Part shown: one piece after another, positions 5,143-49,982 of the stretch
Layout: every line of letters starts with the position of its first letter
Position numbering within the stretch: the stretch's first letter is position 1
Position numbers and translations under genes: made by a program
The notes under the pieces: generated by a model
The model's input: the letters and a program-made list of their open reading frames with translations, nothing else
What the model was told of the DNA's origin: nothing
The model's database searches: none
Assembly: GCA_965222235.1 (NCBI GenBank)
Contig: OZ244939.1
Location: 557,942-621,941, forward strand
Direction of reading: 5' to 3'
DNA length: 64,000 bases
Source of the DNA: Minisyncoccota bacterium
GTDB lineage: Bacteria; Patescibacteriota; Minisyncoccia; Phycocordibacterales; JABAAK01

Positions 5143-5185
5143 TGCTTTGTCAGGTACGAGGTGCCTGTGCTACACTGACACCATT

Positions 5186-5262
5186 GCTGCGGTAGCTCAG
5201 CCCGGTTAGAGCGCCTGCCTGTCACGCAGGAGGTCGCGGGTTCAACTCCCGTCCGCAGCGCC
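5186..5262 (+). tRNA. tRNA-Asp (anticodon GTC)
   Basis: A cloverleaf can be read by hand. The acceptor stem is gctgcgg/ccgcagc, the D-arm gctc-agcccggtta-gagc, the anticodon stem cctgc/gcagg with loop ctGTCac, and the T-arm gcggg-ttcaact-cccgt, with discriminator g. Confidence 0.85.
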
Positions 5263-5496
5263 CTTCTGTGTGGACGAAGTAATGGAACAGCCACATTCAG
5301 CACACTTCAAAAGATTTCTATATGGATGCTGTTTAGTTACCTGTTTCTTTTGTGGTTTACCCCGCTGTTCCATTATGAGATGGCATGCATCAAAAAGTTT
5401 CTTGGTAATGATTGGCTTATATGTGCCTTCGTGCGTTTCGTCATTCCATTGTACTACAGATATCGAATCAAATGCTTTTTGTAGTGATGTACCTCT
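5263..5496 (-). pseudogene. Internal fragment (zinc-ribbon region) of a large serine recombinase gene, fused directly to the 3' end of tRNA-Asp and truncated at the other side by an R-element
   Basis: The minus-strand translation ...HEGTYKPIITKKLFDACHLIMEQRGKPQKKQVTKQHPYRNLLKCAECGCSITSSTQKG matches residues ~255-300 of the recombinase at 24772 (ELYEGTHKPLITKKLFDKVQHVLTDKSRPKTRLKTPHAFRGLLLCAHCDCSITSSVQKG). The reading frame runs straight into the tRNA 3' end. Confidence 0.6.
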
Positions 5497-5758
5497 GGGC
5501 GCCCCTAATGAGATAGCACGTGAACTGGTAATTATTTTCGATCTGTTTTTTGATATTCAACCCTTATGCTCGCTCCTGTTTTTGTTTGCCTTTCAAATTC
5601 TCGCCAAAGGCGAGAAAGTGGGGGCAGGACTTAAAATGAAAACAAAAACAGGAGCTCGCAAATTTTGTGTCAGCACCTTTCTTTTGCCTTTCTCTGCGCG
5701 CAGAGCGCGCAAAGGGGTCGGCGGTAAAATGAAAAAGAAAAGTGGTCTGACACAAAAT
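5497..5758. repeat. R-element copy, left arm of the inverted-repeat pair around RM cassette 1; contains a nested internal palindrome
   Basis: Bases 5497-5596 and 5690-5758 are the reverse complement of 9093-9250 (ggcgcccctaatgagatagcacgtgaactgg ... gcctttctctgcgcgcagagcgcgcaaagggg...taaaatgaaaaag). The extra ~95 bp in the left arm contains a palindrome (gctcgctcctgtttttgtttgcc / aaaacaaaaacaggagctcgc). This copy is homologous to the R-family body elsewhere, for example 24233-24330. Confidence 0.7.
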
Positions 5759-5864
5759 GTTTTCAACAGGCATTCTCTGTAAATACCCTGATTCTACTCT
5801 TTATTTTTTTGGTTTTTGGTGTATTTACTTATTGTGCTATTTTTCCTTGTTATATTTATATTAT

Positions 5865-6944
5865 ATGCCTCTAATGTTCAGCAAGATCATTAAAGATGAT
5901 TGTGTGGCGGCACTGAGGAAGATTAAAGAAGAATCAGTTGATTTGATTTTTGCTGATCCACCATACAATCTACAACTTGGCGGTGAACTATTCAGACCGA
6001 ATAATACAAAAGTTGATGGTGTTGATGACGCATGGGATAAATTTACAGATCTTAAAGAGTATGATAAATTCACAGTGAACTGGTTGCAAGAATCTAAAAG
6101 AGTGTTGAAACCCAATGGAACCCTTTGGGTTATTGGCTCTTACCATAACATCTATAGAGTTGGTTCAATATTACAAGATCTAGATTTTTGGATACTCAAT
6201 GATGTCGTGTGGATTAAATCTAATCCTATGCCAAATTTTAAAGGCACTAGGTTCAATAATGCGCATGAAACACTGCTGTGGGTTTCTAAGGACAAAAACG
6301 CTAAGTTTACGTTTAACTACAAGACAATGAAAACATCTAATGATGATAAACAGATGCGCAGTGACTGGGTGATTCCTATATGCTCTGGGAAGGAAAGAAT
6401 TAAAACACGTGACGGAGAGAAAGCACATTCAACACAGAAGCCAGAGGAGTTGTTAAAGAGAGTAATTATTTCTTCATCAAAACAAGGTGATGTGGTTCTT
6501 GATCCATTTTTAGGGAGCGGAACCACAGGCGCTGTTGCGAAAATGCTTAACAGGAGTTTTATTGGCATAGAGAGAGAGGAGAAATACATTACAGTTGCAA
6601 AAGAACGAATTAAGAAGGTGAAACGGTACAATGAGGAGTACACGGTAAACTTTCAGGAGGTACCCAAGCCAAGGGTCCCTTTTGGTAATCTTGTAGAAAG
6701 TAATTATATTAAAGTTGGTGTGAAATTATACTCAAAGGATAAAAAACACTGGGCAAAGGTAATGGCTGACGGAACTTTGAAGAATGGGAAGTATTTTGGC
6801 TCTATTCATAAGGTGAGTGCAGAAATGCTTGAACGGGAAAGCAATAATGGTTGGATCTTTTGGAATGTTCAAAAAAATGGTAAATTGGTAAGTATAGACA
6901 GTCTGCGTGAGTTATATTTTCAGGAGACAACTCTAGCAGGATAA
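5865..6944 (+). CDS. DNA methyltransferase, beta-class (N6-adenine or N4-cytosine; DPPY before FxGxG), with a ~120-aa C-terminal extension
   Basis: It has ...SVDLIFADPPYNL (motif IV) early and DPFLGSGTTG (motif I) late. The ORF track gives 5757..6944, but the first 36 codons lie in the R-element. The likely start is MPLMFSKIIKDD at ~5865. The gene is AT-rich relative to its flanks. Confidence 0.85.
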   Translation: MPLMFSKIIKDDCVAALRKIKEESVDLIFADPPYNLQLGGELFRPNNTKVDGVDDAWDKFTDLKEYDKFTVNWLQESKRVLKPNGTLWVIGSYHNIYRVGSILQDLDFWILNDVVWIKSNPMPNFKGTRFNNAHETLLWVSKDKNAKFTFNYKTMKTSNDDKQMRSDWVIPICSGKERIKTRDGEKAHSTQKPEELLKRVIISSSKQGDVVLDPFLGSGTTGAVAKMLNRSFIGIEREEKYITVAKERIKKVKRYNEEYTVNFQEVPKPRVPFGNLVESNYIKVGVKLYSKDKKHWAKVMADGTLKNGKYFGSIHKVSAEMLERESNNGWIFWNVQKNGKLVSIDSLRELYFQETTLAG

Positions 6945-6952
6945 AAGGGTAT

Positions 6953-8140
6953 ATGGCACGAATACGAAACGCAAAAGAAAGTCATGAAAGTGGCTACGAG
7001 AGAATATTAGGAGATAAAGAAATTTCAAATCTCATTACAAAAATTCATGCAACGATGATTAGTGCAGGATCTGAACTTGAGCGGTTACTGTATGAGGAAG
7101 CAAAAAATAAAATAGAGGACGGAGAAGACCTTGACGCTTATTTTAAGGGGAACAAGGAGTTTCCAGAAAATGATGGCATATATCTTGTTAATAAGAGAAC
7201 AATTAAAAAATCAAAAGCACTGAAATCAGACAAGGAACCTGATTTTTTAGGTGTAGATTTTAAAAAAAGCACCCTCTATATCATTGAGGTGAAAGACGGA
7301 GAAAACTTTGATACTAAAAAGTCCAGTGTTGAGCATGAGAATTTAATTAGTTATAGGGACTTTATTGCTCATAAAATACCATTTTCGTCAGTCATTTACA
7401 TCTGCCTGTTTAATACTAAAGATAAAGACAGAGCATCCAAGGCAGGGCTGAAGAGTAAATTTTCAAAAGAGGAAATCATAACTGGAAAAGAGTTTTGTGA
7501 TCTGTTCAACATAGATTTTAACCGTATTCAGAAAAGGCGAGAAGAAGATGTAAAAGATAATCTAAGATTTATTATAGAGAACGTAAAGCAGTGGTTGAGA
7601 AAATATATAAAACCTGTAAGAGAAGAAAGTGATCTTAGAAAGATGTGGGATGATCTTATAAGCAAGAACGGTTACGCAATTGTAAATTATGGTGAATGGT
7701 TCGCCATTAAGAATGAATTTAAACAGTGGGGGTCTGAGAAGCAAAAAGTGCGCATAGTGGCGCAAGCAAATGCTGGAGAGGCATTGTATGCGCCGGAAGC
7801 AGATTTGTTAGGATACCTTTTCTTTGATGATATGAAAAAGGTTGATATACAAAATGACTATGCGATACGGGTTGACGGTGACTCTATGAACAAAAGAAAG
7901 ATAAATGGTAAGTATATAGAGAATAGTGATTATGTACTTGTTCAATCGGATACTCCGCCAGAAGAAGGAGATGTGGTAGTGTCACTTGTAAACGGTGGGG
8001 TGAATATAAAGGAGGTTTATAGAGAAAACGAAGACGTGATATTGCGATCTCAGTCAAAGAGTGCCGGGTACGAAGACATACGGGTGAGAGAAGACGATTA
8101 CACCTATCTGGGCAGGGCAATTGATGTTTTTAAGGTGTAG
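6953..8140 (+). CDS. Putative restriction endonuclease (PD-(D/E)xK fold) fused to a C-terminal LexA/UmuD-like S24 serine autopeptidase domain
   Basis: The start lies 9 nt after the MTase stop on the same strand. The N-terminal part has EPDFLGVDF-x8-IIEVKDGE, the PD...ExK spacing of type II REases. The C-terminal ~130 aa align to the LexA C-terminal domain: an Ala-Gly (QANAG|EAL) lies 36 residues before VDGDSM (Ser nucleophile), and the Lys in GVNIKEV lies 42 residues after the Ser. The same spacing in LexA is 34 and 37 residues. Confidence 0.6.
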   Translation: MARIRNAKESHESGYERILGDKEISNLITKIHATMISAGSELERLLYEEAKNKIEDGEDLDAYFKGNKEFPENDGIYLVNKRTIKKSKALKSDKEPDFLGVDFKKSTLYIIEVKDGENFDTKKSSVEHENLISYRDFIAHKIPFSSVIYICLFNTKDKDRASKAGLKSKFSKEEIITGKEFCDLFNIDFNRIQKRREEDVKDNLRFIIENVKQWLRKYIKPVREESDLRKMWDDLISKNGYAIVNYGEWFAIKNEFKQWGSEKQKVRIVAQANAGEALYAPEADLLGYLFFDDMKKVDIQNDYAIRVDGDSMNKRKINGKYIENSDYVLVQSDTPPEEGDVVVSLVNGGVNIKEVYRENEDVILRSQSKSAGYEDIRVREDDYTYLGRAIDVFKV

Positions 8141-8211
8141 AGACGGGTCAGTTAATATTTTTTAACATTGTGGGTGTGGAGATGGTTTGATACACTGATC
8201 AATATTAAAGA

Positions 8212-9024
8212 TTGCACATGACTTCTAACTCAAGCAAAATATTGCAAATTAATTTTTTGCACCAAGATATACAAAAGCATTGTTCAGGTTATCGCAAATC
8301 GGAGGAATATAGGGATTGTGCAAAGAAGGCGTTTGATTTGGTACGTGATAGGTATCGGGAAAAATTTGGCAGTGAAATTGTACCCAAGGAATTTTTAAAA
8401 GTATATTACATAAAAGGCACGCGAGGTTCTAGCGGTAGTGAAGAAGATAAAAATTTTCAGAAAGGGTGTGAGTATGTATTGCGCTCAGTTAATAATTTTA
8501 GGCATGAAGTAGAGCACACAGATTCCACCACACCTATGACAAAAAAAGATGCTATGCACCATTTATGTTTATGTAGTATGGCTCTTAATTTTTTAGATCA
8601 AATGGAGCACTATCCAAATAATACACATCCGTTTACACGAAATGACTATAAGAAAGAAAAGATGAGCGGATCAATTAAATTTAACTATAGCAACAACAAT
8701 GGTGAATATCGTATCGGTAAGGATTTACATGCTTTTACTGTAAAGGTTAGTTCTTGTAGTGAAAATTCTTTATACGTATATCACGATCCAGAGTTGATAA
8801 AGGGAGTGGGATTGATATTTAAGAGATGTAAAGATTTGAAGACCCTAAACGAGAAAGCATTAAAAACAATTGATATGAGTTCAAGGTGTAGGAGGATGAC
8901 AGTGGAAAATACATGTATTCTTCTAAACTTAAATAATATGTATGTCGCACTAAATTTAGAAAGTGCAGAACGTGAATGTGGTCACATTGCTATTATAGAG
9001 TATCAAATATTGCCTAAAGGGTAG
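8212..9024 (+). CDS. Hypothetical protein, third gene of RM cassette 1; contains an Rx4HxH (HEPN-like) motif
   Basis: This is a 270-aa AT-rich ORF. The motif NNFRHEVEHTD fits the HEPN Rx4-6H signature, and no other fold was recognised. It is co-directional with, and immediately downstream of, the nuclease-S24 gene. Confidence 0.45.
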   Translation: MHMTSNSSKILQINFLHQDIQKHCSGYRKSEEYRDCAKKAFDLVRDRYREKFGSEIVPKEFLKVYYIKGTRGSSGSEEDKNFQKGCEYVLRSVNNFRHEVEHTDSTTPMTKKDAMHHLCLCSMALNFLDQMEHYPNNTHPFTRNDYKKEKMSGSIKFNYSNNNGEYRIGKDLHAFTVKVSSCSENSLYVYHDPELIKGVGLIFKRCKDLKTLNEKALKTIDMSSRCRRMTVENTCILLNLNNMYVALNLESAERECGHIAIIEYQILPKG

Positions 9025-9092
9025 CGTAAGGAAATTCGCAAGCGTGATTGTATAAAGATTAATCACGCTTGCGAATTGCAGTTTAGGCAGAT

Positions 9093-9250
9093 TTTGTTCA
9101 GACTCTTCTTTTTCATTTTACCGCCGCCCCCTTTGCGCGCTCTGCGCGCAGAGAAAGGCAAACAAAAACAGGAGCAAGCATAAGGGTTGAATATCAAAAA
9201 ACAGATCGAAAATAATTAACCAGTTCACGTGCTATCTCATTAGGGGTGCC
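9093..9250. repeat. R-element copy, right arm of the inverted-repeat pair around RM cassette 1
   Basis: This is the reverse complement of the 5497-5758 arm. It contains taccgccgccccctttgcgcgctctgcgcgcagagaaaggcaaacaaaaacagg, which is homologous to cagtaccgcccccttcacgcgctccgcgcggaaaaaaggcagaagaaaatgg in the R copy at 24255-24310. Confidence 0.7.
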
Positions 9251-11449: not shown

Positions 11450-11605
11450 TGTTTTCTTCCGGCGTGTATTGAATTCGCACCTGAAGTGCAACAAAAAGAA
11501 AAAACACATACGCCCGCTTGGTACTATGGATATGTTACTAACCATAACCAAACAGGCGTATGTACACTCATAGTACCATTACTAAGCGGATGGCGATAGC
11601 GACAC

Positions 11606-12566
11606 TTAATGGTTCAATACATTTGCACATAGCAGCGATACTGCAGATGTATGAGACAACATCCCAAGAAAATCATTCAAATATACAAAGAAACAAGAGA
11701 TATACAGCATACTGCTGAACTGCTCGGTATCCACAGAACCACGGTATCCCGGTGGCTGAGACGGGCACGGTCACCGTATCCCTACGGGGAACCGCGGTAT
11801 GTCATGCGGGGACTGCAGCGGAAGAGCACGAGACCGAAGAGACTGAGGGAACCGGCACTCTCCGGGGAGGAAAGAGTAGTCATTGCGGCAATGAGGCAGA
11901 AACGGGGATGGTGTGCCGAGAAACTCAGGGAGGAAACCGGTATAGCGGTATCAGTAAGTACGGTGAAACGGTTCCTGATAGCCCGTGGCTACATACGACA
12001 GAAGAAGCGACATCGTCGTCCCTTGTGTCAGAATACAGTACATATGCACGCAAAGAACGCTGAAACCGTCGGCTACCTCCAGATGGATGTGAAGTACCTC
12101 ACCCCTGAATTGACAGGATTGCCCTGGACCTGTTTCGAGTATGCCATCATAGACATTTACTCCCGATACAAGGATGCCGTCATATACAATGATCTGAATC
12201 AGAATAATGCCATTTCAGCTATGACGGAAATAGTGAACCGTCTACCCTTCAGAACAGTATTCATCCAAACGGATAACGGTCTTGAATTTCAAAAAAGATT
12301 CCATACCCATGTAACTGCTCTCTGTACAAAACACCACTATATTCACAAATCAAGTCCTAACGAGAATGCCGTCATTGAACGATCGTTCAGGACTGATGAG
12401 GAGGAGTTCATCTACTACAAGGCTCCTTTCAAAGAATATGACGATCTCAGAGAACAATACGCCCAATACCTCCATCATTACAACCATGAGAGACCGCATT
12501 TCGGCATTGACCTTAAGAAACCCATAGATGTGGTACACTCATGTGCAAATGTATTGAACCATTAAG
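11606..12566 (+). mobile_element. IS481-family insertion sequence (copy 1) with 25-bp perfect terminal IRs and 7-bp target duplication gcgacac
   Basis: The ends are ttaatggttcaatacatttgcacat ... atgtgcaaatgtattgaaccattaa. The flanking gcgacac at 11599-11605 is repeated at 12567-12573. Removing the IS plus one TSD restores the IS30 transposase reading frame (ATG at 11590). Confidence 0.8.
11651..12565 (+). CDS. IS481-family transposase (N-terminal HTH + DDE integrase core/rve domain)
   Basis: It has an HTH (TAELLGIHRTTVSRWLRR) and an rve core with DVKY...TDNGLEF...NENAVIER. It is 100% identical to the protein at 26481..27395. Confidence 0.85.
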   Translation: MRQHPKKIIQIYKETRDIQHTAELLGIHRTTVSRWLRRARSPYPYGEPRYVMRGLQRKSTRPKRLREPALSGEERVVIAAMRQKRGWCAEKLREETGIAVSVSTVKRFLIARGYIRQKKRHRRPLCQNTVHMHAKNAETVGYLQMDVKYLTPELTGLPWTCFEYAIIDIYSRYKDAVIYNDLNQNNAISAMTEIVNRLPFRTVFIQTDNGLEFQKRFHTHVTALCTKHHYIHKSSPNENAVIERSFRTDEEEFIYYKAPFKEYDDLREQYAQYLHHYNHERPHFGIDLKKPIDVVHSCANVLNH

Positions 12567-13439
12567 GCGACACTGAAAAGAGCGGGGCTCTCACAGACAG
12601 CGATAGCAAGAGAGATAGGGGTACACAGAAGCACGGTATGCAGAGAGTTGCGGAGAAATGGCACGGAAAAGAAAGGGTATCGTCCAATATACGCGGAACG
12701 GAAGGCGAAAGAAAGAAGAAGAGAATCTAAGGAGCCCTACCGGAAGATAGACGGTGATCCTGATCTGCAGCAGAAAATTGAGCGGATGCTGCATCCTCTC
12801 ATCTCCCCTGAAGTAGTGGCACACCTCTGTGGTATACACCACCAGAGAATCTATGACCGGGTAAGAAGAGAGCGACCGGATCTCAAAGACAGGTTGCCGA
12901 GAAAAGGAAGGAAGAAAAGAAAGAAAACAGGAAAGAGGACAGTATGGGTCAGTACAACACGGTCAATACACAACAGACCGGAGACAGACGGGCTCTCCCG
13001 GGAGGGAGACACCCTGGTGGGGCCGACAAAGACAAGAATACTCACCCATGTGGAGAAGAAAAGCTTGTATCTTGATGCCAGAGTCATACGAGACGGTTTG
13101 TCCCACACCGTACATGAGACACTGCAAAAGAGACCGCTGCAGGGACAAATCACCTATGACTGCGGTTCTGAATTCACCCTATGGAAATGGATAGAAGAGG
13201 ATACGGGAGCGACTGTCTACTTTTGTGATCCTCATTCCCCGGGACAGCGGGGCAAGAATGAGAACACTAACGGCAGGCTCAGACGAGTCTACCCCAAGAA
13301 CACTGATCTCAGCACGATAGCACAACAGAATCTCAACAACATTGTCCACCTCATGAACAACACCCCGAGGAAGTCCCTTAACTGGAAAACTCCCGCTCAG
13401 GTGTATACTGCACTTGTTGCATCTCAGTCGAGAATCTAA
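12558..13439 (+). pseudogene. IS30-family transposase, 5' end disrupted by the IS481 insertion (first 5-6 codons lie at 11590-11605 upstream of the insertion)
   Basis: The in-frame translation reads ATLKRAGLSQTAIAREIGVHRSTVCRELRRNGTEKKGYRP... (IS30 HTH), then DDE, then CDPHSPGQRGKNENTNGRLRRVYPKNTDL, the IS30 C-terminal signature. The ORF track lists 12648..13439 (TTG start). Confidence 0.75.
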
Positions 13440-13457
13440 TACTTAGGCTCTTTTTAT

Positions 13458-19091: not shown

Positions 19092-19826
19092 CAGAGATTA
19101 GACTCTCGACTGAGATGCAACAAGTGCAGTATACACCTGAGCGGGAGTTTTCCAGTTAAGGGACTTCCTCGGGGTGTTGTTCATGAGGTGGACAATGTTG
19201 TTGAGATTCTGTTGTGCTATCGTGCTGAGATCAGTGTTCTTGGGGTAGACTCGTCTGAGCCTGCCGTTAGTGTTCTCATTCTTGCCCCGCTGTCCCGGGG
19301 AATGAGGATCACAAAAGTAGACAGTCGCTCCCGTATCCTCTTCTATCCATTTCCATAGGGTGAATTCAGAACCGCAGTCATAGGTGATTTGTCCCTGCAG
19401 CGGTCTCTTTTGCAGTGTCTCATGTACGGTGTGGGACAAACCGTCTCGTATGACTCTGGCATCAAGATACAAGCTTTTCCTCTCCACATGGGTGAGTATT
19501 CTTGTCTTTGTCGGCCCCACCAGTGTGTCTCCCTCCCGGGAGAGCCCGTCTGTCTCCGGTCTGTTGTGTATTGACCGTGTTGTACTGACCCATACTGTCC
19601 TCTTTCCTGTTTTCTTTCTTTTCTTCCTTCCTTTTCTCGGCAACCTGTCTTTGAGATCCGGTCGCTCTCTTCTTACCCGGTCATAGATTCTCTGGTGGTG
19701 TATACCACTTAGTAATGGTACTATGAGTGTACATACGCCTGTTTGGTTATGGTTAGTAACATATCCATAGTACCAAGCGGGCGTATGTGTTTTTTCTTTT
19801 TGTTGCACTTCAGGTGCGAATTCAAT
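19092..19826 (-). mobile_element. IS30-family element copy 2, inverted relative to copy 1 and carrying a ~270-bp internal deletion (removes transposase N-terminal HTH region)
   Basis: Bases 19709-19826 are the reverse complement of 11473-11590 (IS30 left end plus leader), joined directly to transposase sequence from ...GIHHQRIYDRV onward. The right-end IR is at ~19092. The transposase remnant (ORF 19098..19808, 236 aa) is otherwise about 99% identical to copy 1. Confidence 0.75.
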
Positions 19827-20198: not shown

Positions 20199-20276
20199 AG
20201 ATAGTCATGCACCTCTGAAAATCCGCCCGTGAAAACTCTTTCGGGAGATTCACGGCGGATACACCTCTTTTACCTT

Positions 20277-20588
20277 CAAGCCTTGTTCACAACCTTCTGC
20301 TTGAACTGAAAAAACATTTTGAAAACACCTCGTCCGCTCCGCCCACTCAGTAACTTTAATCCCAATCATACGCTCCAATTGCTCAGTAAACCCTTTCACC
20401 AAAGAATTCGGAGCGTCGCTCGCAAGCATGCGCAAGCTCGCATCGCGCAAATTTTTCCACTTCGCTCATCCGACTGGCGGCTTTGCCACCATCGGTAACG
20501 CCAATCACCATCTCCATTTTCTTCTGCCTTTTTTCCGCGCGGAGCGCGTGAAGGGGGCGGTACTGAATTGAAGAAGAAAATGGGGTGG
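20277..20588. repeat. R-element, left arm of a perfect 312-bp inverted repeat flanking RM cassette 2; preceded by the 19-bp core ctcttttaccttcaagcct (20265-20283)
   Basis: It is 100% identical, as the reverse complement, to 24233-24544. Every 60-nt line was checked by eye. Confidence 0.85.
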
Positions 20589-20628
20589 CGAAAGGCATGA
20601 AACAACGGAGACACCACCCTATTTTTGT

Positions 20629-21357
20629 TTAATCCCTCATTCCAATCTCTTTTTCTAATATTTTGATAAGTTCTATAATCTGTGGAATATCCAATTCGTC
20701 TATCTCAGATTTTCTCTTTATTAAATGATACCAGGAGTGTACCCGATTATTGGTTTCTGTTTTTAGTTTATCTGCAAGATTATAAAGGCGTTCCACTGCT
20801 TTGATCTTTGTACCAAAGTCACTCTTCTTATTATGTAAATTTTTGAGTATAACGCCGAAATCCCTAAGCCTTCTTTGATCTGTGTCAAAATAGAGATTTT
20901 TTTCTTTTGGATATTTTTTACAAAGTATATCTATGATTAGGTTTTCTATGATTTTTCGTGACAGGATGGAAACGGAAGTGTAGCAGCCATATGTGTACGC
21001 TTTGTTGATTTCATCAATATGTCCTTTTACAAAATGTTTGTCTGTCTCATACTCAAAGAGCACCAGTATCTCCTTCTTTTTTCTGCCACCTTCTCTTTTT
21101 ATTGCAGGTTTTGAGGTTTGGGGTATGTGTGATGGCGTTGATATAATACGTTTCTCCTCAGCAGATAATTTTTTTTGAAAGGTGGTACAAGGAACCCCTT
21201 CTTGTTTGGATATCATTACGAGAGCAACATCAGAGGAAACACTCTGTGTTCTTGATTTCCTGGAGATCCTCTCTTTTACACTTTTTCCCTTTGATCCTGT
21301 TTTTTCAGCAATTTTTTTGATCAACTTTTCTTTTGCTGATTTTTTAGTATCGTTCAT
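20629..21357 (-). CDS. Hypothetical protein of RM cassette 2; Lys-rich N-terminus, C-terminal helical domain with Rx5H (possible HEPN-like) motif
   Basis: A 242-aa AT-rich ORF with ...TETNNRVHSWYHLIKRK... No confident fold assignment. Confidence 0.4.
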   Translation of the reverse strand: MNDTKKSAKEKLIKKIAEKTGSKGKSVKERISRKSRTQSVSSDVALVMISKQEGVPCTTFQKKLSAEEKRIISTPSHIPQTSKPAIKREGGRKKKEILVLFEYETDKHFVKGHIDEINKAYTYGCYTSVSILSRKIIENLIIDILCKKYPKEKNLYFDTDQRRLRDFGVILKNLHNKKSDFGTKIKAVERLYNLADKLKTETNNRVHSWYHLIKRKSEIDELDIPQIIELIKILEKEIGMRD

Positions 21358-21361
21358 ATAT

Positions 21362-21550
21362 TTATGTCGATCTCCCGCCCCTCTTATTCTTTTCTCTGTG
21401 TAAGTAAAAACTTCTTGAAATATGTGACTGGTCTACACCAAGTATTTTTGCAATATCTTGCTGGGGTGCACCTTCCTTTGATATGATGAATACCAAGAGT
21501 CGCTTGATATCTTCCAGATCTTTCTCCATTTTACTTTCCTTTGTTTTCAT
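21362..21550 (-). CDS. Small HTH DNA-binding protein (1 of 3 tandem paralogs; controller-like)
   Basis: A 62-aa ORF with the helix-turn-helix QQDIAKILGVDQSHISR. Confidence 0.45.
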   Translation of the reverse strand: MKTKESKMEKDLEDIKRLLVFIISKEGAPQQDIAKILGVDQSHISRSFYLHREKNKRGGRST

Positions 21551-21731
21551 ATATCCATTTCTTTTTTTTATCCAGGTCTTTCAGGTATGAGTTTAATTTG
21601 CCTGTTGAGATACCTATTCTTTTTGCTATGTCGGGCTGACCTAACCCGGTTTGGTGATAAAGAAGGGCAGTAATCTGTCTCAACAGTTCTATAACTTCTT
21701 CTTCGTTGCTTTTCTTTTTTGTTCTTTGCAT
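21531..21731 (-). CDS. Small HTH DNA-binding protein (2 of 3 tandem paralogs)
   Basis: A 66-aa ORF with the helix-turn-helix QPDIAKRIGISTGKLNSYLKDL. Confidence 0.45.
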   Translation of the reverse strand: MQRTKKKSNEEEVIELLRQITALLYHQTGLGQPDIAKRIGISTGKLNSYLKDLDKKKKWIYENKGK

Positions 21732-21735
21732 AAGA

Positions 21736-21948
21736 CTATTTTTTGTTTTTTGATTTAATTACAGCAACATAGTTTTTGCTCGTGGACAGTATCTCTGCGA
21801 TTTCTTCATTGGTCAGATCGAACTCGTTGAGAAATTTAATGTTTTCTGTGGCATCAGAGTCACCCTCTCTTTTGATCATCAGGGCAATGAGTACTGACAT
21901 TTTTTTTGACAATGATCTGAGCAGATCTGTGCTTGTTTGTTGCTCCAT
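21736..21948 (-). CDS. Small HTH DNA-binding protein (3 of 3 tandem paralogs)
   Basis: A 70-aa ORF with the helix-turn-helix NEEIAEILSTSKNYVAVIKS. Confidence 0.45.
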   Translation of the reverse strand: MEQQTSTDLLRSLSKKMSVLIALMIKREGDSDATENIKFLNEFDLTNEEIAEILSTSKNYVAVIKSKNKK

Positions 21949-22065
21949 ATAATTATACTATGTTTCTTAATATTTTTATCATATACCTATATTACTTACT
22001 GTATTCAGTATACTTGAATTTCGTATAATATAGATATACCTTATATTGTATACGACACTTGATGT

Positions 22066-22824
22066 ATGTCAATATGTTTGTTATACTTTACTTATGCAAC
22101 CCAAGGCGTACACTTTGGGTATATGGATAAAATAAACGATACACAGTCTTTTGACTTATTTCTACAGAGTGTCGATCTGAATAAGTATAGGGAGAAGTAC
22201 AAGCCAATCAAATTGGTGGAGATGGATTTGCCGAGAGATATTCAGGTATTGGACCTTATGTACGAGATTTATTGGGACAAGCGAGAGTATGTTGACTTCG
22301 ATGACTTCTACAAGAGTTATGAAAAACGGTACAAGGGTGAGATAGAGTCGTTCAGAGAAAAAATAACAATGTGCCCTAATTGTTTCTATCGGGGATTGCC
22401 TGCGAGAATATACAGAACTTGGGCAAGTATTATTACACAAATACATGCCGGCTATGTTGCTGAGCGGGTATTTGGTGCTGACATGGTGCGTATGTCCACC
22501 GAGCTTGACAGAAAGAGTGCAGATATACAGGTTTCTTATAAAGGACGCACACTGAATTATCAGGTTAAGAAAGTTACAAAGAGTCGGGAGGTGCGCGTAC
22601 AAAAAACTACAAACAAGCAGTTGGAGGGTGAGGCAATAGACATCAAATATTTTGTTCCTACACAGGAAGTTTTTGAAAAACCAAAGAAACTAAATGGTGA
22701 GTACAGAAAGCCATACCGTGATTTTATGGAAAACAAAAACTTAAAGAGGTTGGATAACGGCTTTGTGGTATTTACCCCTCATGTTTTTCGTGAGAAAAAA
22801 GAAGAGATTGATGTTTCTCGTTGA
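22066..22824 (+). CDS. Hypothetical protein, candidate restriction endonuclease of RM cassette 2 (convergent with and overlapping the MTase 3' end)
   Basis: A 252-aa AT-rich ORF. The likely start is MDKIND at ~22126. It has a CPNC pair and acidic/Lys-rich motifs (STELDRKSADIQVSYKGR), but no clean PD-(D/E)xK assignment. Its position and convergent overlap with the MTase are typical of type II R genes. Confidence 0.4.
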   Translation: MSICLLYFTYATQGVHFGYMDKINDTQSFDLFLQSVDLNKYREKYKPIKLVEMDLPRDIQVLDLMYEIYWDKREYVDFDDFYKSYEKRYKGEIESFREKITMCPNCFYRGLPARIYRTWASIITQIHAGYVAERVFGADMVRMSTELDRKSADIQVSYKGRTLNYQVKKVTKSREVRVQKTTNKQLEGEAIDIKYFVPTQEVFEKPKKLNGEYRKPYRDFMENKNLKRLDNGFVVFTPHVFREKKEEIDVSR

Positions 22825-24175
22825 GTTCTTGGTTTTTTAAGAGGCCATCAGCTAGCCGGATGTATTCTTTATTAATTTCCATACCGATAAAATCATGCCC
22901 GAGCTGTTTTGCTGTAAAACACTCTGATCCGGACCCGGCGAACGGGATAAGGACTAACCCCTTTTGTTCAAGGCAGGAATTGATAAGTTTTTCTGTGAGT
23001 AAGGATGGTTTTTGTGTTGGGTGTTTGAGGGTGTTATGCTTTCTGTGTTCTTCCAAATGTTTTGCCACATATGTTTCACCACAAGTTTTACAAAGAAAAT
23101 GCCGTTCTGATCTGCCGGCACCCCCGGCAAGCGCGGGTACTTTGATAACATCTCTTGGTAGGGCACCTTTTTTGTGTGCTTTGTATATTGTTGTGCTTTC
23201 TCCCTTGCTAAATCTGCAGGATTTTGAATTTCTTGTTTTGCCAGCAGAGTTTTTGAGGAATGTTTCTGAGTACGGTTCTCTAACTGCATCTCTGAAGAAT
23301 GTTGGCTTTTTTTCTTTCCATACACATAATATGCTTTCATGACTTCGTTGCCAGAAATTGAGAGAAGCAACATTTTTATTAGTGTAATGCCAGATCAACC
23401 ATCGTTTGTTTACCTGTATGTTTGGTGTGATATGTGCCAGTATTTCACTGAATCCGTAGATAAACATGGTCCCTTCATTTTTAAGGCATCGTAATCCCTC
23501 ATTAACCCATGTGTTGCACCATCCGACATACTCATCAATCTCTCTTTTATCTTTATTATTTCCAAAATCTTTTCCTATGTTGTATGGCGGATCTGCGATG
23601 ATAACATCAACACTTACATTTGGCATCTTTCGCATTTCTATTAATGCATCTCCGTGAATTATGGTATTTTCTTTTGGTATTTCTGTATTCAGTATTCTTT
23701 TTGAAACAAGATTAACACTCTCTTGTTCTTGTGTTTCAATTTTTCCCGTTACTACACCAAGAATGTCAATCTTATTTTTAGGAAATGATAGCAATTCTCC
23801 ATTGTCAGATATTAGCGTAATATTCCTTTTTGTTACATTTTTAATTCTTTTTATGGTGTCTCCTTTTTGTGTTCTTGCAATAATAACATCATCTTGTTTT
23901 GCTTGCGTTGCGTCTTCTACAAGAATAGTTGTACCATTTTTATAGGTATGTCGCATGCTATCGCCACTCACTGTTAGGGAATAATATTTTTTATTTGGTT
24001 TTAATATGTTTTCGGGGATAGTAATTGTTGAGAAGGTGCCACATATCGCTGTGCCGAGTGAGGTTTCGGCATAAACCTTACCGAGGAAAGGTATTTTTAC
24101 ATATTTCATATATATATAGTGTAACTGGAAAATTAGGTCATGTAGAAAAATCCACCATCGTATATGGAAATCCAC
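22772..24175 (-). CDS. Fusion protein: N-terminal LexA/UmuD-like S24 serine autopeptidase domain + C-terminal beta-class DNA methyltransferase
   Basis: Residues ~60-150 read YSLTVSGDSMRHTYKNGTTILVEDATQAKQDDVIIARTQKGDTIKRIKNVTKRNITLISDNGELLSF. This aligns to LexA VRGDSM...VVVARIDDEVTVKRLKKQGNKVELLPEN, with Ser73, Lys109 and a candidate Cys-Gly cleavage site 27 residues upstream. Residues ~170-467 read IIHGDALIEM...VIIADPPYNIG ... IPFAGSGSECF, a DPPY-then-FxGxG MTase. It is a single uninterrupted ORF. The likely start is MKYVK at ~24109. Confidence 0.7.
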   Translation of the reverse strand: MDFHIRWWIFLHDLIFQLHYIYMKYVKIPFLGKVYAETSLGTAICGTFSTITIPENILKPNKKYYSLTVSGDSMRHTYKNGTTILVEDATQAKQDDVIIARTQKGDTIKRIKNVTKRNITLISDNGELLSFPKNKIDILGVVTGKIETQEQESVNLVSKRILNTEIPKENTIIHGDALIEMRKMPNVSVDVIIADPPYNIGKDFGNNKDKREIDEYVGWCNTWVNEGLRCLKNEGTMFIYGFSEILAHITPNIQVNKRWLIWHYTNKNVASLNFWQRSHESILCVWKEKKPTFFRDAVREPYSETFLKNSAGKTRNSKSCRFSKGESTTIYKAHKKGALPRDVIKVPALAGGAGRSERHFLCKTCGETYVAKHLEEHRKHNTLKHPTQKPSLLTEKLINSCLEQKGLVLIPFAGSGSECFTAKQLGHDFIGMEINKEYIRLADGLLKNQELNEKHQSLLFSHEKHEG

Positions 24176-24232
24176 TCATGCAAGAGTTCTTGCGAAATTG
24201 CATGAGCGGATTGCTAATAATTCACACCAATC

Positions 24233-24544
24233 CCACCCCATTTTCTTCTTCAATTCAGTACCGCCCCCTTCACGCGCTCCGCGCGGAAAAAAGGCAGAAG
24301 AAAATGGAGATGGTGATTGGCGTTACCGATGGTGGCAAAGCCGCCAGTCGGATGAGCGAAGTGGAAAAATTTGCGCGATGCGAGCTTGCGCATGCTTGCG
24401 AGCGACGCTCCGAATTCTTTGGTGAAAGGGTTTACTGAGCAATTGGAGCGTATGATTGGGATTAAAGTTACTGAGTGGGCGGAGCGGACGAGGTGTTTTC
24501 AAAATGTTTTTTCAGTTCAAGCAGAAGGTTGTGAACAAGGCTTG
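24233..24544. repeat. R-element, right arm of the perfect 312-bp inverted repeat; continues as a diverged extension to ~24650 that duplicates the 3' flank of tRNA-Arg(TCT)
   Basis: It is the reverse complement of 20277-20588. Bases 24540-24650 are the reverse complement of 26190-26300. Confidence 0.85.
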
Positions 24545-24771
24545 ATGGGAAGATGGAGTCCGCTTTCACGGACCTATTGATATGGCGCGCCCTATGGGCG
24601 CGCAAAAAGGGGGAAGAATAAAGGATGTGCCACGCGTTGCGTGGCACACTGATTTTTCAAAAAGATTTTTGTCCGAACGCAGAAATATTTTGTGTTGTAT
24701 ACTAACAGTGCAACCCAAGATAGTATAAGGATTAAAATCGCCTCATCAGACCGGAGTTCTTATGCTTTGGG

Positions 24772-26479
<1,708 letters not shown>

Positions 26480-26484
<5 letters not shown>

Positions 26485-27440
26485 TGGTTCAATACATTTG
26501 CACATGAGTGTACCACATCTATGGGTTTCTTAAGGTCAATGCCGAAATGCGGTCTCTCATGGTTGTAATGATGGAGGTATTGGGCGTATTGTTCTCTGAG
26601 ATCGTCATATTCTTTGAAAGGAGCCTTGTAGTAGATGAACTCCTCCTCATCAGTCCTGAACGATCGTTCAATGACGGCATTCTCGTTAGGACTTGATTTG
26701 TGAATATAGTGGTGTTTTGTACAGAGAGCAGTTACATGGGTATGGAATCTTTTTTGAAATTCAAGACCGTTATCCGTTTGGATGAATACTGTTCTGAAGG
26801 GTAGACGGTTCACTATTTCCGTCATAGCTGAAATGGCATTATTCTGATTCAGATCATTGTATATGACGGCATCCTTGTATCGGGAGTAAATGTCTATGAT
26901 GGCATACTCGAAACAGGTCCAGGGCAATCCTGTCAATTCAGGGGTGAGGTACTTCACATCCATCTGGAGGTAGCCGACGGTTTCAGCGTTCTTTGCGTGC
27001 ATATGTACTGTATTCTGACACAAGGGACGACGATGTCGCTTCTTCTGTCGTATGTAGCCACGGGCTATCAGGAACCGTTTCACCGTACTTACTGATACCG
27101 CTATACCGGTTTCCTCCCTGAGTTTCTCGGCACACCATCCCCGTTTCTGCCTCATTGCCGCAATGACTACTCTTTCCTCCCCGGAGAGTGCCGGTTCCCT
27201 CAGTCTCTTCGGTCTCGTGCTCTTCCGCTGCAGTCCCCGCATGACATACCGCGGTTCCCCGTAGGGATACGGTGACCGTGCCCGTCTCAGCCACCGGGAT
27301 ACCGTGGTTCTGTGGATACCGAGCAGTTCAGCAGTATGCTGTATATCTCTTGTTTCTTTGTATATTTGAATGATTTTCTTGGGATGTTGTCTCATACATC
27401 TGCAGTATCGCTGCTATGTGCAAATGTATTGAACCATTAA
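26480..27440 (-). mobile_element. IS481-family insertion sequence copy 2 (inverted relative to copy 1), 7-bp target duplication gatatac
   Basis: It has the same 25-bp terminal IRs as copy 1. The sequence gatatac at 26473-26479 is repeated at 27441-27447. The element sits ~90 bp from tRNA-Arg. Confidence 0.8.
26481..27395 (-). CDS. IS481-family transposase (identical to 11651..12565)
   Basis: The 304 aa are 100% identical to the copy-1 protein. Confidence 0.85.
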
Positions 27441-27643
27441 GATATACTTGATTTTTATGTGTCTGTACGATAAAATTTCTCTATATGTTCTCTATATGAA
27501 AAAAGTATTTGGTTTTCCTTGGGGTTTAGTATTCTTTTTCTTTTTATCCCTCCTTGTTTTAGTATGGGCATTTATATCTCTTTATTCTAATAACTTGGAA
27601 TACGCTTTCTATTTTTTTTAAAGAGCTTTATATTATTATTCTT

Positions 27644-45047: not shown

Positions 45048-45079
45048 CTAGTGCTGTGCCGAATGCACCGAAGCCCTGA

Positions 45080-45400
45080 TCCCACCGAACGGGCTAATCT
45101 TTTCAAAGCTCCACTCCGTTGCGCACCGATCCTCGTGGCACTCCGCTCCCGCGCCAACCGCGGAGAAGGGCGCGAAATATGGAACGGCAGGGAAGGTATT
45201 GCATACGCAAACCCTCCCTGTTTTTTCACTTCTGCTCGGTTCGGCTCCGTTCAGTTCACTTTTCCCACTCCTCCTCTTTTCGCTGCGCTGTCGCTCCGCG
45301 GAAAGTGTCAGAGCCGGAAATGCCTGTGCGAATCTGAAGGCGATACTTGACCCGCACATGCTACACAACACATCCGTTGCGACAGGGAACATTGTGTTTA
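45080..45400. repeat. R-element family copy (degenerate core + body) immediately downstream of the giant adhesin gene
   Basis: Bases 45105-45160 are the reverse complement of 49760-49810. Bases 45215-45300 are similar to 16560-16650. Confidence 0.6.
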
Positions 45401-45475
45401 TGATGTCCACTACACTTTTCAAAAATATCAATTATTCATATATCGTATACTTAATTTCTTAACTGTAATTGTGAT

Positions 45476-46045
45476 TCATTTTATAAAAACCTTACATTTT
45501 TTTGCCTCGTTCATTAATTTTGTATAAGTAATTGATTCAATGAAATAATGTTTTTTATGATGGTCGTATGTTTTATTATTGATATGAAATTGCCCCTCTC
45601 CAATATTACCCCTATGCTGTTTATCTGAATAATTTATCTTTTCATCTCTTTGTATCTGCTTTTTTTCTATTTCAAATATCTCAATCACATCATTAAAAAA
45701 TAATAAGTATATCATCTTATCAAAGAGTTTTACTTTTATTTGTTGAATGTTACAATCAAATTCAAATTTACCCACATCTTTTTGTTTTATCAGTCTGTTT
45801 CTATTACTATTATTTATTATGATTTCATAAAAATTCTCAATATTCATATCTAACTTCTGTTTTTTAAAAACTTTTGATGCTTTTACCTCAACTTTATTAT
45901 TATTTATATCCACCAAATCAAACTCCAATTTTTTACTTTCTATGCATTTTTTCAGTATCATAACGATAATCTCAGCAGCAGTTCCGAACTGCCTTGTGTG
46001 TATATCAATAATGCCATCCCGAAATTTCTCACTATCCATACCCAA
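45476..46045 (-). CDS. Putative type II restriction endonuclease of RM cassette 3
   Basis: It is co-directional with, and overlaps by 14 nt, the upstream MTase. FDLVDINNNKVEVKASK fits the D...ExK motif of PD-(D/E)xK nucleases. It is very AT-rich. Confidence 0.5.
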   Translation of the reverse strand: MGMDSEKFRDGIIDIHTRQFGTAAEIIVMILKKCIESKKLEFDLVDINNNKVEVKASKVFKKQKLDMNIENFYEIIINNSNRNRLIKQKDVGKFEFDCNIQQIKVKLFDKMIYLLFFNDVIEIFEIEKKQIQRDEKINYSDKQHRGNIGEGQFHINNKTYDHHKKHYFIESITYTKLMNEAKKCKVFIK

Positions 46046-46823
46046 TTTTTCTTATTCGTTTTTCCATTATGTCAAAATACTCTTTTTTGTTCTCAAAACA
46101 GATATATTTTCTATTGCATTGTATTGATGAAACAGCGGTTGTTCCGCTGCCGGCAAAAGGATCTAACACAGCATCACCTTCATTACTGAATACCTGCACT
46201 ATTCTGTCCATCAGCATTAATGGTTTTTGAGTCGGGTGTTTCACTCTCTCTTTTGACCACGGAACAATCGGAGAAACATCGGTCCATACATTAGAGAGTG
46301 CTCTGTATCGGTTACCATTTTTTCTGCCAATTGTCCCGCCGGTTTTTTTGAGAATCGTTGAAGAAATTTTATTGTATGTGTGTGTTTTCTCATCCTTCAC
46401 ATACCACAAAATGTCCTCTCTCGTGGAGACAAGGTTGGTTTTTGCTCCTCGTCCCTTTATCCTGTCGTAAATTATCCAATTTTTTAATGTAAATAGCGCG
46501 CTGATTTCAGTATGGGTCAGCATCACATTAGACCATCCTTGAAACACTATGAGATTACCCGTTGGTTTTAGTATTCTATTGAATTCTTTTGTTAACAGAT
46601 TCCAATTCAAAAAACCTTTCGCATCCCATTCATTTCCTTCAAAATTTATTTCATACGGAGGATCGGTCGCTATCAAGTCAACTGAATTTTCAGGAAGTTT
46701 CGGGAGTAGCTCAATACAATCACCCAAAACAATCTGATTTTCAAGAGATTTTACCGAATCAACTCTATCTGTAAAAACAGATTTTCGGTTTTCTACACCT
46801 GTTAGTAACATGCCTTGCTCCAT
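46032..46823 (-). CDS. DNA methyltransferase, beta-class (DPPY ... FAGSGTT)
   Basis: VDLIATDPPYEINF early, DPFAGSGTTAV late. Confidence 0.85.
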   Translation of the reverse strand: MEQGMLLTGVENRKSVFTDRVDSVKSLENQIVLGDCIELLPKLPENSVDLIATDPPYEINFEGNEWDAKGFLNWNLLTKEFNRILKPTGNLIVFQGWSNVMLTHTEISALFTLKNWIIYDRIKGRGAKTNLVSTREDILWYVKDEKTHTYNKISSTILKKTGGTIGRKNGNRYRALSNVWTDVSPIVPWSKERVKHPTQKPLMLMDRIVQVFSNEGDAVLDPFAGSGTTAVSSIQCNRKYICFENKKEYFDIMEKRIRKIGYG

Positions 46824-46852
46824 CTATAAAATTATACCATGCAGTAGCGTAT

Positions 46853-47112
46853 TAGAAGGCGATAATATCACACCTTGAAGTTTTAATAGAAAAGCAGAGT
46901 GCCAAGTCTCCCGGAAGAAAAGTTTTTGAGGCGATGCTTGATCGCATCGCCGAGGGAGAGGCAGAAGGAATTCTTGCGTGGCATCCGGACAGACTCGCCC
47001 GCAACATGACGGACGGGGCGAAACTGGTTGAATTGATTGAATCAGTCGGCGCGTCTCTTGTCTTTCCCACTTACCATTTTGACAATACGCCTCACGGTAT
47101 CTTCTGCCTCTC
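46853..47112 (+). pseudogene. Internal fragment of a serine recombinase gene (residues ~55-140), truncated upstream by RM cassette 3 and downstream by the R-element core
   Basis: ...SHLEVLIEKQSAKSPGRKVFEAMLDRIAEGEAEGILAWHPDRLARNMTDGAKLVELIE...FPTYHFDNTPHG aligns with LEVLEERQSAKEPGRPVFNRVLSRIYDGEATGILAWHPDRLARNSIDGGQIIHLID...FPTFWFEPTPQG of the 24772 protein. The sequence then runs into ctttttaccttcaagcct. Confidence 0.6.
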
Positions 47113-47384
47113 CCTTTTTACCTTCAAGCCTTGCCAACAGGATAGCACTCAAACTCAAAAAGGACTTTGAAAACACCAATTTGCACGCTCCACCCACCCC
47201 ATAGCCCTAACCCGTCACTTCCGCTCTAGACACTCAGTAAACACGTTGACCAGTCGCGTCGCACCCCTCGGGCCCGTGTTCACTACGTTCACACAATCCC
47301 TCTGGGCGCGCCGCTCCCCGCGCCAATCACCGTCGTCATTTCCTTTTTCTATTTAGTCGCCCCCGCACCCCGCGTGCTCGCCTC
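47110..47384. repeat. R-element family copy (core ctttttaccttcaagcct at ~47115-47132 + diverged body)
   Basis: It aligns at about 65-70% with 20265-20588 in the same orientation. Confidence 0.6.
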
Positions 47385-47448
47385 CATAGTACCAAGCGGG
47401 CGTATGTGTTTTTTCTTTTTGTTGCACTTCAGGTGCGAATTCAATTCT
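47385..47448 (-). mobile_element. Solo ~62-bp fragment of the IS30-family left end
   Basis: ccatagtaccaagcgggcgtatgtgttttttctttttgttgcacttcaggtgcgaattcaattc is the reverse complement of 11469-11533. Confidence 0.65.
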
Positions 47449-47491
47449 GCCCTGATAGATATGTTTATTTTAATGTTAGAATATAAGTACT

Positions 47492-49474: not shown

Positions 49475-49639
49475 AAAATTGAACTTTATTAATTGAATTG
49501 TAGCATTTATATTGACGCGAATCAAAGGAAATCCGCCGTTTCCCGTAAACGTTCGCAAGCGGGAAATCGGTAGATTGCATGAGTTCTCCCGACCCATCAC
49601 ACCGACATTTTCTTTTACTGTCTGATTTGCGTGCTCTTG

Positions 49640-49910: not shown

Positions 49911-49982
49911 CCTCCCCAGCAGGAATCGAACCTGCATTACAAGCTCCGCAAGCCTGCGTTCTATCCATTAAACTATGGGGAG
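49911..49982 (-). tRNA. tRNA-Arg (anticodon read as GCG; assignment of anticodon less certain)
   Basis: The minus-strand cloverleaf reads ctcccca-ta-gttt-aatggata-gaac-g-caggc-ttGCGga-gcttg-taat-gcagg-ttcgatt-cctgc-tggggag-g. It has two G-U pairs and a 4-nt variable loop. Confidence 0.65.

Follow-up and report, generated by a model that had tools for sequence, protein, structure and literature searches.

A 64,000-nucleotide stretch of contig OZ244939.1 from a Minisyncoccota bacterium (hereafter the window) contains a restriction-modification cassette that lies between two long, perfectly identical inverted repeats and next to a gene for a large serine recombinase (LSR). This arrangement raises the question of what these repeats are and how they are kept identical. 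The reading that we favour, with a probability of roughly 0.6, is that positions 20277-26318 form an integrative element of about 6 kb, placed by the LSR at the 3' end of a tRNA-Arg(TCT) gene, and that its free form would be a circle with two inverted repeats, each bearing a copy of the element's attachment site (attP).

Two abutting repeats and three related junctions

The earlier note had described a perfect inverted repeat of 312 bp around the cassette. This is borne out, and base-by-base extension sets the perfect core at 313 nt (20276-20588 and 24233-24545), within arms that a repeat search of the window delimits as 20270-20588 and 24233-24551 (319 nt, 99% complementary, spacing 3644 nt). 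A match of this length makes a chance origin impossible. The repeat search also revealed a second perfect inverted repeat of 108 nt (24538-24645 and 26211-26318), which had been overlooked. This repeat (IR-B) abuts the cargo-flanking repeat (IR-A) with a 14-nt overlap (24538-24551) and brackets the LSR gene, and its outer end falls 3-4 nt inside the tRNA-Arg(TCT) gene. The features of the element are listed below.

20264..20284, read on the minus strand: S1, the distal junction, X-core-Y = GTGAACA-AGGCTTGA-AGGTAAAAGAGG, an attR-type hybrid
20270..20588, plus strand: left (distal) arm of IR-A, perfect from 20276
20589..24232, no strand: cargo segment, 3644 bp
24233..24551, minus strand: right (recombinase-proximal) arm of IR-A, the reverse complement of 20270-20588
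24520..24570, plus strand: S2, the internal junction between IR-A' and IR-B, X-core-Z = GTGAACA-AGGCTTGA-TGGGAAGATGG, of intact attP type
24538..24645, plus strand: left arm of IR-B, 108 nt, with several hairpins
24772..26484, plus strand: LSR open reading frame (ORF), with Resolvase, Recombinase and Zn_ribbon_recom domains (PF00239, E 1.5e-20; PF07508; PF13408)
26211..26318, minus strand: right arm of IR-B, which holds the 3' tail of the LSR gene and its terminator and shares, at its outer end, the final 3-4 nt of the tRNA
26305..26330, read on the minus strand: S3, W-core-Z = tRNA...CCGGGG-AGGCTTGA-TGGGAAGATGG, an attL-type hybrid
26315-26389, minus strand: tRNA-Arg(TCT), intact, 73.7 bits

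The three repeat boundaries have a common core, AGGCTTGA, which stands in direct orientation in S1 and S3 and is inverted relative to both in S2. If an attP of the form X-core-Z had recombined with a host site (attB) of the form W-core-Y, the products would be W-core-Z and X-core-Y; S3 and S1 have this form, and S2 is what would be expected of one extra, intact attP that was kept. The outer ~60 nt of the left arm of IR-A constitute the X arm, which carries a T-loop-like motif, AGTTCAAG. Outside S1 lies Y, followed by a terminator-like hairpin (~20225-20262, ATCCGCCGTGAA...TTCACGGGCGGAT) and, beyond it, by the 3' end of a convergent host ORF that ends at 20198. A bidirectional terminator-like hairpin (24626-24648) is also located at the inner end of the left arm of IR-B.

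Both inner junctions of IR-A exist in raw reads, since an independent Logan assembly of run ERR13605531 (L001) corresponds exactly to window positions 20559-24262 and ends 30 nt (k-1) inside the repeat on both sides. Several other origins of the repeat were considered and rejected. A search against Rfam returned tRNAs only and thus no RNA gene from which the repeat could derive; a protein-coding duplication was dismissed, as ORFs that cross the arms are frameshifted or arginine-rich nonsense and the likeness to relatives is at the DNA level; and in a search for a decayed piece of a recombinase gene in the A arm, all tblastn matches had E > 1.

Conservation of the layout in relatives

The window was compared with 102 loci, 80 of which are distant LSR relatives (45-55% identity) in GTDB genomes from the candidate phyla radiation (CPR) and from other records labelled Omnitrophota, Elusimicrobiota and so on. 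Two loci whose LSRs are 76% identical to that of the window, L002 and L003, have the same double-repeat layout at a tRNA-Arg(gcg) gene and carry other restriction-modification genes as cargo. In L002, a circular metaMDBG contig of 831 kb with 97x coverage, the arms measure 219-232 nt (98-99%) and 143 nt (100%), and the arms of L003 measure 292 nt (98.6%) and 110 nt (96%). Among the distant relatives, IR-B is present in 45 of the 56 loci with enough flank (75-189 nt, median identity 99.4%), and IR-A abuts IR-B in 21 of 31 eligible loci (94-469 nt, median 99.3%). Chains of abutting repeats always consist of exactly two segments (34/34 in the 102 loci and the window). The logic of X-core-Y, X-core-Z and W-core-Z junctions is found in the window and 22 other loci; beyond L002 and L003, the remaining 20 are situated at genes for tRNA-Asn, Gln, Ser, Leu, Glu, Trp and Ala. 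In 52 loci the tRNA gene comes just after the LSR gene and is convergent with it; in 2 others it lies upstream, on the strand of the LSR gene. The target tRNAs comprise more than ten species (Asn, Gln, Ser, Arg, His, Leu, Ala, Glu, Gly, Trp, Ile). Such conservation rejects both an assembly artefact and a one-off duplication as the source of the layout.

Geometry of the attachment sites

In the 23 loci with all three sites, the shared cores are 3-33 nt long and usually end in the tRNA discriminator-CCA. The tRNA T-loop motif GTTCRA begins 18 nt before the shared core, whereas a T-loop-like motif, RTTCNR, is found 23 nt before the core in the X arm of the element in 18 of the 23 loci. Among the exceptions, L064 has the same 5-nt offset at other positions, and the offset in L033 is 4. 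In LSR attB half-sites, the motif for DBD2 (the zinc-ribbon domain) is 5 bp nearer the centre than in attP (PMC11722253). The 5-bp offset matches this rule for the left half-sites, of which X would be the P-type and the tRNA end the B-type one. The offset emerges from the specific T-loop motif; when the X and W arms were simply aligned at varying shifts, no constant offset appeared.

The Y flanks look, from their sequence, like host DNA, and in 8 of the 23 loci, including the window, they contain terminator-like hairpins. Indirect evidence that an element has entered a tRNA pair is clearest in L029, in which the element sits between co-oriented genes for tRNA-Arg(gcg) and tRNA-Ser(tga) (7706-7778 and 11486-11573) and the next tRNA gene (tRNA-Arg, co-oriented) is only 4 nt outside the distal arm.

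Concerted evolution, cargo replacement and inversion

The two copies of an arm within one locus differ at 0-4 positions, whereas related loci differ from one another at 5-95 paired fixed positions. Between the window and L002, paired differences occupy 90 of 228 columns in A and 41 of 108 in B, and loci with 83-90% identical LSR segments show 5-23 paired arm differences. The paired substitutions indicate that the arms either are actively homogenised or pass through a single-copy stage. Thus, of the two origins that had been suggested for the perfect identity, ongoing homogenisation agrees with the data and a single recent duplication does not. LSR segments that are 83-90% identical are accompanied by unrelated cargo, and the A arms co-diverge with the recombinase platform; constant, co-diverging arms around unrelated cargo imply that the cargo has been swapped between them.

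The pair of restriction endonuclease (REase) and methyltransferase (MTase) genes in the window (22073-24103) is 74% identical to positions 7075-5045 of L002, in which it has the opposite orientation and lies at the opposite arm, and the recombinase modules of the two loci are co-linear and 77% identical. This is the product expected from inversion between the A arms, and these alignments indicate at least one evolutionary inversion of the cargo with respect to the recombinase module. The earlier note had proposed that the cassette might flip and that this would resemble phase variation. The first part is in keeping with the evolutionary inversion; the second is not supported, because both arms are identical, so that flipping alters no junction and leaves all gene-to-arm relations unchanged, and because the terminator hairpins of the B arms (24626-24648 in the window) are predicted to insulate the cargo from the recombinase gene.

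Relative to the tRNA gene, 2 of 54 loci (L005 and L066) have a flipped recombinase segment, and in L066 the orientation is resolved by k-mers, since the k of the k141 contig exceeds the 102-nt arm. L088 and L093 share the same LSR protein and ~100% identical DNA and differ by the inversion of a 1.4-kb segment between 193-nt repeats. This pair had been considered as proof of flipping within a population, but it was downgraded and is only suggestive, because perfect repeats of 193 nt are too long for short-read assemblies to give a reliable orientation of what lies between them. L088 itself consists of two tandem two-segment elements, and its second LSR is distant.

The recombinase

The called LSR product (P0001) begins at 24814 and has 556 aa. 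The part that is conserved among homologues ends at ~26210, and the ORF continues through IR-B' and antisense to the tRNA; the conserved protein thus has at least 465 aa. The same three LSR domains occur in 7895 homologues, which carry names such as Parcubacteria, Pacebacteria and similar; these names agree with a CPR/Patescibacteria origin of the 641-kb contig to which the window belongs. The sole PDB match is the catalytic domain (E 4e-7).

The LSR had been put forward earlier as a candidate invertase. A functional link between the two is indeed supported, as the predicted recombination cores of the LSR form the outer ends of the repeat. An integrase nonetheless fits better than a dedicated invertase, given the logic of attL, attP and attR at a tRNA 3' end and the 5-bp offset between P-type and B-type half-sites. 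The hallmark of an invertase, an enzyme of ~190 aa with a C-terminal helix-turn-helix (HTH), is also absent, as the LSR has at least 465 aa and LSR domains. A phage origin was considered and set aside, since IMG/VR yielded two truncated relatives only.

Upstream of the LSR product lies the following feature.

24690..24815, plus strand: leader of the LSR gene, with promoter-like TTGTGT...TATACT and a long hairpin

The leader hairpin has a predicted energy of -46 kcal/mol (z = -6.4 against shuffles) and is nearly identical in L002 despite an overall identity of 77%. It may be a translational or transcriptional control element.

A proposed integrative element with two inverted attP copies

It is reasonable to assume that the element consists of two unique segments, each within its own inverted repeat: the cargo between A and A' and the recombinase between B and B'. 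The contiguous A' and B would make up one intact attP (X-core-Z) with long arms. The second A.B copy would be split, with its B half at the tRNA gene (W-core-Z, attL type) and its A half at the far end (X-core-Y, attR type). In the free circle, two inverted A.B repeats of ~410 bp, each with a central attP, would separate the two unique segments. One attP copy would recombine with an attB made up of the tRNA 3' end and the terminator flank (tRNA-Arg 3' end plus AGGTAAAAGAGG...), and the other A.B copy would stay intact between cargo and recombinase. The predicted empty site reads ...CCTGCCGGGGAGGCTTGA / AGGTAAAAGAGGTGTATCC..., the stroke marking the boundary between its two parts. Gene conversion or flip-flop recombination could keep the copies identical and occasionally invert the cargo or the recombinase segment. 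With one split and one intact A.B copy, the 313-bp repeat would be a duplicated attP flank, neither a transposon end nor an expression switch. Integration and excision to a circle would be catalysed by the LSR, and the second attP might possibly serve integration in either orientation, provide homology arms for the swapping of cargo, or act in insulation.

Several observations weigh against the proposal of an integrative element with two attP copies. The empty attB was not found in two scans of JGI metagenomes (for the window tRNA-Arg plus Y and for the P0055 element), and no circular contig emerged from identical-protein look-ups of P0077, P0037, P0055 and P0097, for which all contexts were integrated or broken; the identical-protein look-up of the window LSR gave no record. 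No recombination directionality factor was identified, and no candidate for it is conserved across the cargo. The recombinase segment is convergent with the tRNA gene in 52 of 54 loci, although equal use of the two attP copies predicts both orientations; from this bias it follows that either the two attP copies are not used equally or selection favours one orientation. A mirrored motif is absent from the right half-sites, Z and Y, and the geometry of attP and attB has thus been checked on the left half only. The LSR is far from all structurally studied LSRs, so that applying their att rules to it is an extrapolation. The orientation of the cargo in the window is taken from the assembly, and the inversion relative to L002 depends on it. 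Finally, Y together with the core (20264-20283, 20 nt) is identical to the flank of a tRNA-Arg(gcg) gene at 49894-49913 in the window, a match that is unexplained by a simple single integration at tRNA-Arg(TCT).

A Y-like flank, GTAAAAGAGG, also borders the elements of L002 and L003, both of which are at tRNA-Arg(gcg). The window's own tRNA-Arg(gcg) gene carries the type of Y flank that is seen at the far end of these two elements; along with the spread of the family over more than ten tRNA species and the split tRNA pair of L029, this lends indirect support to excision and to presence/absence polymorphism. Either the flanks of the two tRNA-Arg genes are paralogous, or the ends were exchanged between the two islands.

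Alternative explanations

The layout could also belong to a programmed switch in which the LSR inverts the restriction-modification cargo (S1 x S2) and its own gene (S2 x S3) and thereby produces heterogeneity of a phase-variation-like kind. The inverted position of S1 and S2, which have an identical X-core half, the adjacent recombinase gene, the occurrence of both segments in both orientations among the relatives and the inverted 1.4-kb segment that distinguishes L088 from L093 all speak for such a switch. However, the last difference stems from short-read assemblies, the LSR has the architecture of an integrase, and the hybrid att logic at the tRNA gene, with its offset between P and B half-sites, points in the same direction. 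Moreover, with junctions and gene-to-arm relations invariant, no on/off state or alternative product is predicted, and the orientations are biased (51 against 16 cargo ORFs and 52 against 2 recombinase segments). A switch therefore appears unlikely. By our estimate slightly less probable still is an integron-like series of modular cassettes, in which each segment would be a circle of its own with a palindromic site (X-core-X' for the cargo, Z'-core-Z for the recombinase) and would be inserted one by one. Such modules would account for the terminal inverted repeat that every segment has of its own, with neighbours meeting at the core, and for a cargo turnover that is much faster than that of the recombinase module; the palindromic dinucleotide GC, present in most cores, would allow excision between inverted sites. 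Yet cores in three loci (L033, L070/L079, L059) are without a palindromic dinucleotide, and the divergence of the A arms follows that of the recombinase platform, not that of the cargo. In addition, each of the 34 chains has exactly two segments and longer cassette arrays do not occur, and the four-segment L088 is made up of two tandem two-segment elements, each with its own LSR.

Two further explanations are far less probable. One is a single recent inverted duplication, or a composite or insertion sequence (IS)-type transposon with terminal repeats around the restriction-modification genes; this would suit the perfect identity of the arms and a region rich in IS elements (IS481-like and IS30-like), and transposon-like restriction-modification units with flanking inverted repeats are known (PMC2853133). 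It is very improbable in view of an architecture that is kept across LSRs of 45-76% identity with paired substitutions in both arms. Furthermore, the segment between the arms encodes no transposase, the arms are unlike every IS in the window, the IS481-like and IS30-like copies included, and their outer ends are att cores common to the tRNA junction, with the att core as the sole direct repeat and no target-site duplication. The least probable explanation, to which we give almost no weight, is that a chimeric or collapsed repeat was created by assembly, as the earlier note had warned. Short-read graphs do break at perfect inverted repeats, and many related contigs in metagenome-assembled genomes (MAGs) end at the arms or are recombinase-only contigs of 1.6-1.9 kb. 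Nonetheless, the Logan assembly supports both inner junctions independently, and the double-repeat layout is shared by the 97x circular metaMDBG contig of L002 and ~45 other independent assemblies, in some of which the arms are imperfect (91-96%).

Many short-read contigs stop at the arms or are recombinase segments of 1.5-1.9 kb between B arms (L013, L020, L038, L073, L078, L094-L096 and many further LSR matches). The arms are a systematic point of fragmentation in CPR MAGs, and the orientation of segments in short-read assemblies of such loci is not to be trusted.

Relation to known systems

With prophages and other elements that are mobilised by LSRs (phiC31, Bxb1, A118/LI, SPbeta, and SCCmec with Ccr), the window element has in common the set of domains, a short shared core, hybrid junctions and, as far as the left half-sites show, a recognition motif that lies 5 bp farther from the core in the element than in the target. 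However, the known LSR elements have a single attP, and a second, inverted and intact attP inside the integrated element has not been described for them; they are also without perfect inverted repeats of 100-470 bp extending from the att cores. In the literature searched, no description was found of an integrated LSR element with a second inverted intact attP in long homogenised repeats, which is not proof of novelty.

In the yeast 2-micron plasmid, which encodes FLP, and in plastid and herpesvirus genomes, two long identical inverted repeats separate two unique segments. The proposed circle resembles the 2-micron plasmid and FLP in its two-segment topology, in the recombinase site inside the repeats, in the concerted evolution of the repeats and in the occurrence of isomers. 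It differs in that the recombinase is of the serine rather than the tyrosine type, the element integrates, no replication gene is recognisable, and the circle is a predicted one. Serine invertases (Hin, Gin, Cin) are small proteins with a C-terminal HTH whose two short target sites are equivalent and whose action switches the expression of genes or their ends; in the C segment of phage P1, inverted repeats of ~0.6 kb have cix sites, the targets of Cin, at their outer ends. Like the window element, these segments are bracketed by inverted repeats with the crossover sites outermost and have a serine recombinase gene beside them, whereas the window element has a large recombinase and hybrid att sites, and its inversion changes nothing detectable.

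Tycheposons of Prochlorococcus (bioRxiv 10.1101/2020.12.28.424599) and the units of Furuta et al. 2010 (PMC2853133) are likewise small, integrase-driven and located at tRNA 3' ends, with variable cargo that includes restriction-modification genes. These units are bounded by direct repeats of the 3' part of the tRNA, whereas the flanking direct repeat of the elements studied here is no more than the core of 3-14 nt, and their prominent repeats are internal and inverted. The units described in detail in PMC2853133 as restriction-modification genes with an integrase at a tRNA gene carry tyrosine-type or integrase-family genes. The same paper reports restriction-modification genes with transposon-like inverted repeats of 26-65 bp and 8-bp target duplications, an arrangement that differs from that of the window element.

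It is conceivable, although we put the chance somewhat below even, that dual-attP elements constitute a widespread and apparently undescribed class of two-segment LSR elements in CPR/Patescibacteria and other uncultivated bacteria, which retain a complete inverted attP copy within arms of 100-470 bp that evolve in concert; the window element would be a typical member. The mobile elements of CPR bacteria are poorly known, and if the proposed reading is true, precise ends and att sites would be defined for a type of element that is very common in this group and carries restriction-modification and defence genes. Dozens of natural attP/attB pairs from a divergent clade of LSRs, with conserved tRNA 3' ends as their targets, would then be available for the discovery of recombinase tools. 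The frequent breaks of CPR MAGs at dual-attP loci would also be explained. Why an LSR element would keep and homogenise a second inverted attP would become a mechanistic question; the element would represent a serine-recombinase analogue of the 2-micron/FLP design, and the mirrored sites could be a platform for the exchange of defence-gene cargo between constant arms.

Cargo genes

The GC content of the cargo is ~36-39%, compared with ~45% in the recombinase segment and ~55% in the host. The gene content that had been read from the sequence at the outset holds up in Pfam and PADLOC, with HTH matches in two of the three small ORFs.

20629-21357, minus strand: hypothetical protein, 242 aa (ORF)
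21362-21550, minus strand: small HTH protein (HTH match)
21531-21731, minus strand: small HTH protein (HTH match)
21736-21948, minus strand: small ORF
22066-22824, plus strand: TaqI-family REase (RE_TaqI; Pfam, E 1e-35)
22772-24175, minus strand: fusion of Peptidase_S24 and N6_N4 MTase (N6_N4_Mtase, E 2e-39)

The REase and MTase genes overlap convergently (22772-22824), and with an REase and an MTase of the cognate type side by side, the cargo has the predicted composition of a type II restriction-modification system. Among 67 cargo ORFs from the 23 loci, the commonest Pfam matches are to DNA methylases, S24/LexA domains and endonucleases of the TaqI, Mrr, MvaI/BcnI and CfrBI types, and rarer ones include Vsr, Shedu SduA and a few metabolic genes. 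The cargo consists mainly of restriction-modification and other defence genes with a fast turnover. The ORFs are directed away from the recombinase gene in 51 cases and towards it in 16.

MTases with an N-terminal LexA/S24 autopeptidase-like domain recur in the window (22772-24175), in L002 (5033-6373) and in L003 (6790-8676), where the fusion additionally holds a LexA DNA-binding domain; S24 matches were found in 6 of the 67 cargo ORFs. Judging from its domains, the S24-MTase fusion may be a built-in regulator of the restriction-modification system, possibly one that responds to damage.

Neighbouring islands and insertion sequences

Two other islands in the window have similar components. Island 1 (5185-9250, GC ~35%) is a decayed element of the same type at a tRNA-Asp gene (5185-5263, plus strand). 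What is left of its LSR gene is found at 5260-5448 (minus strand, aa 236-297), and its A-type arms (5498-5743 and 9102-9250) are homologous to the inner and outer parts of arm A. The cargo includes genes for an MTase (5757-6944) and for a protein of 395 aa whose C-terminal domain is S24-like (6953-8140), as well as an ORF of 270 aa. Island 3 (45050-49982) adjoins the tRNA-Arg(gcg) gene (49910-49982, minus strand) and has A-like arms (45108-45157 and 49759-49808, 92%) around two restriction-modification gene pairs. An N-terminal LSR remnant (46874-47116) is joined there, at a core-like TTCAAGCCT, to A-like sequence (47116-47252), and no recombinase segment is present between the tRNA gene and the arm. 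The arms of both islands and those of L003 have conserved counterparts of the inner ~70 nt of the IR-A arm.

Positions 11-28 kb of the window form a nest of inverted repeats. Two 100% identical, inverted IS481-like copies of 963 nt are present, one beside tRNA-Arg(TCT) and the other within an IS30-like element. IS-related stretches are found at 11468-13440, 19097-19826, 26479-27441 and 47383-47447, along with further IS30-like fragments.

A separate type of repeat occurs in L002 (18422-19586), where a perfect inverted repeat of 358 nt, with arms 449 nt apart, carries two identical genes for a 73-aa HTH_3 protein and is located between a tRNA-Gln and a tRNA-Asp-like gene.

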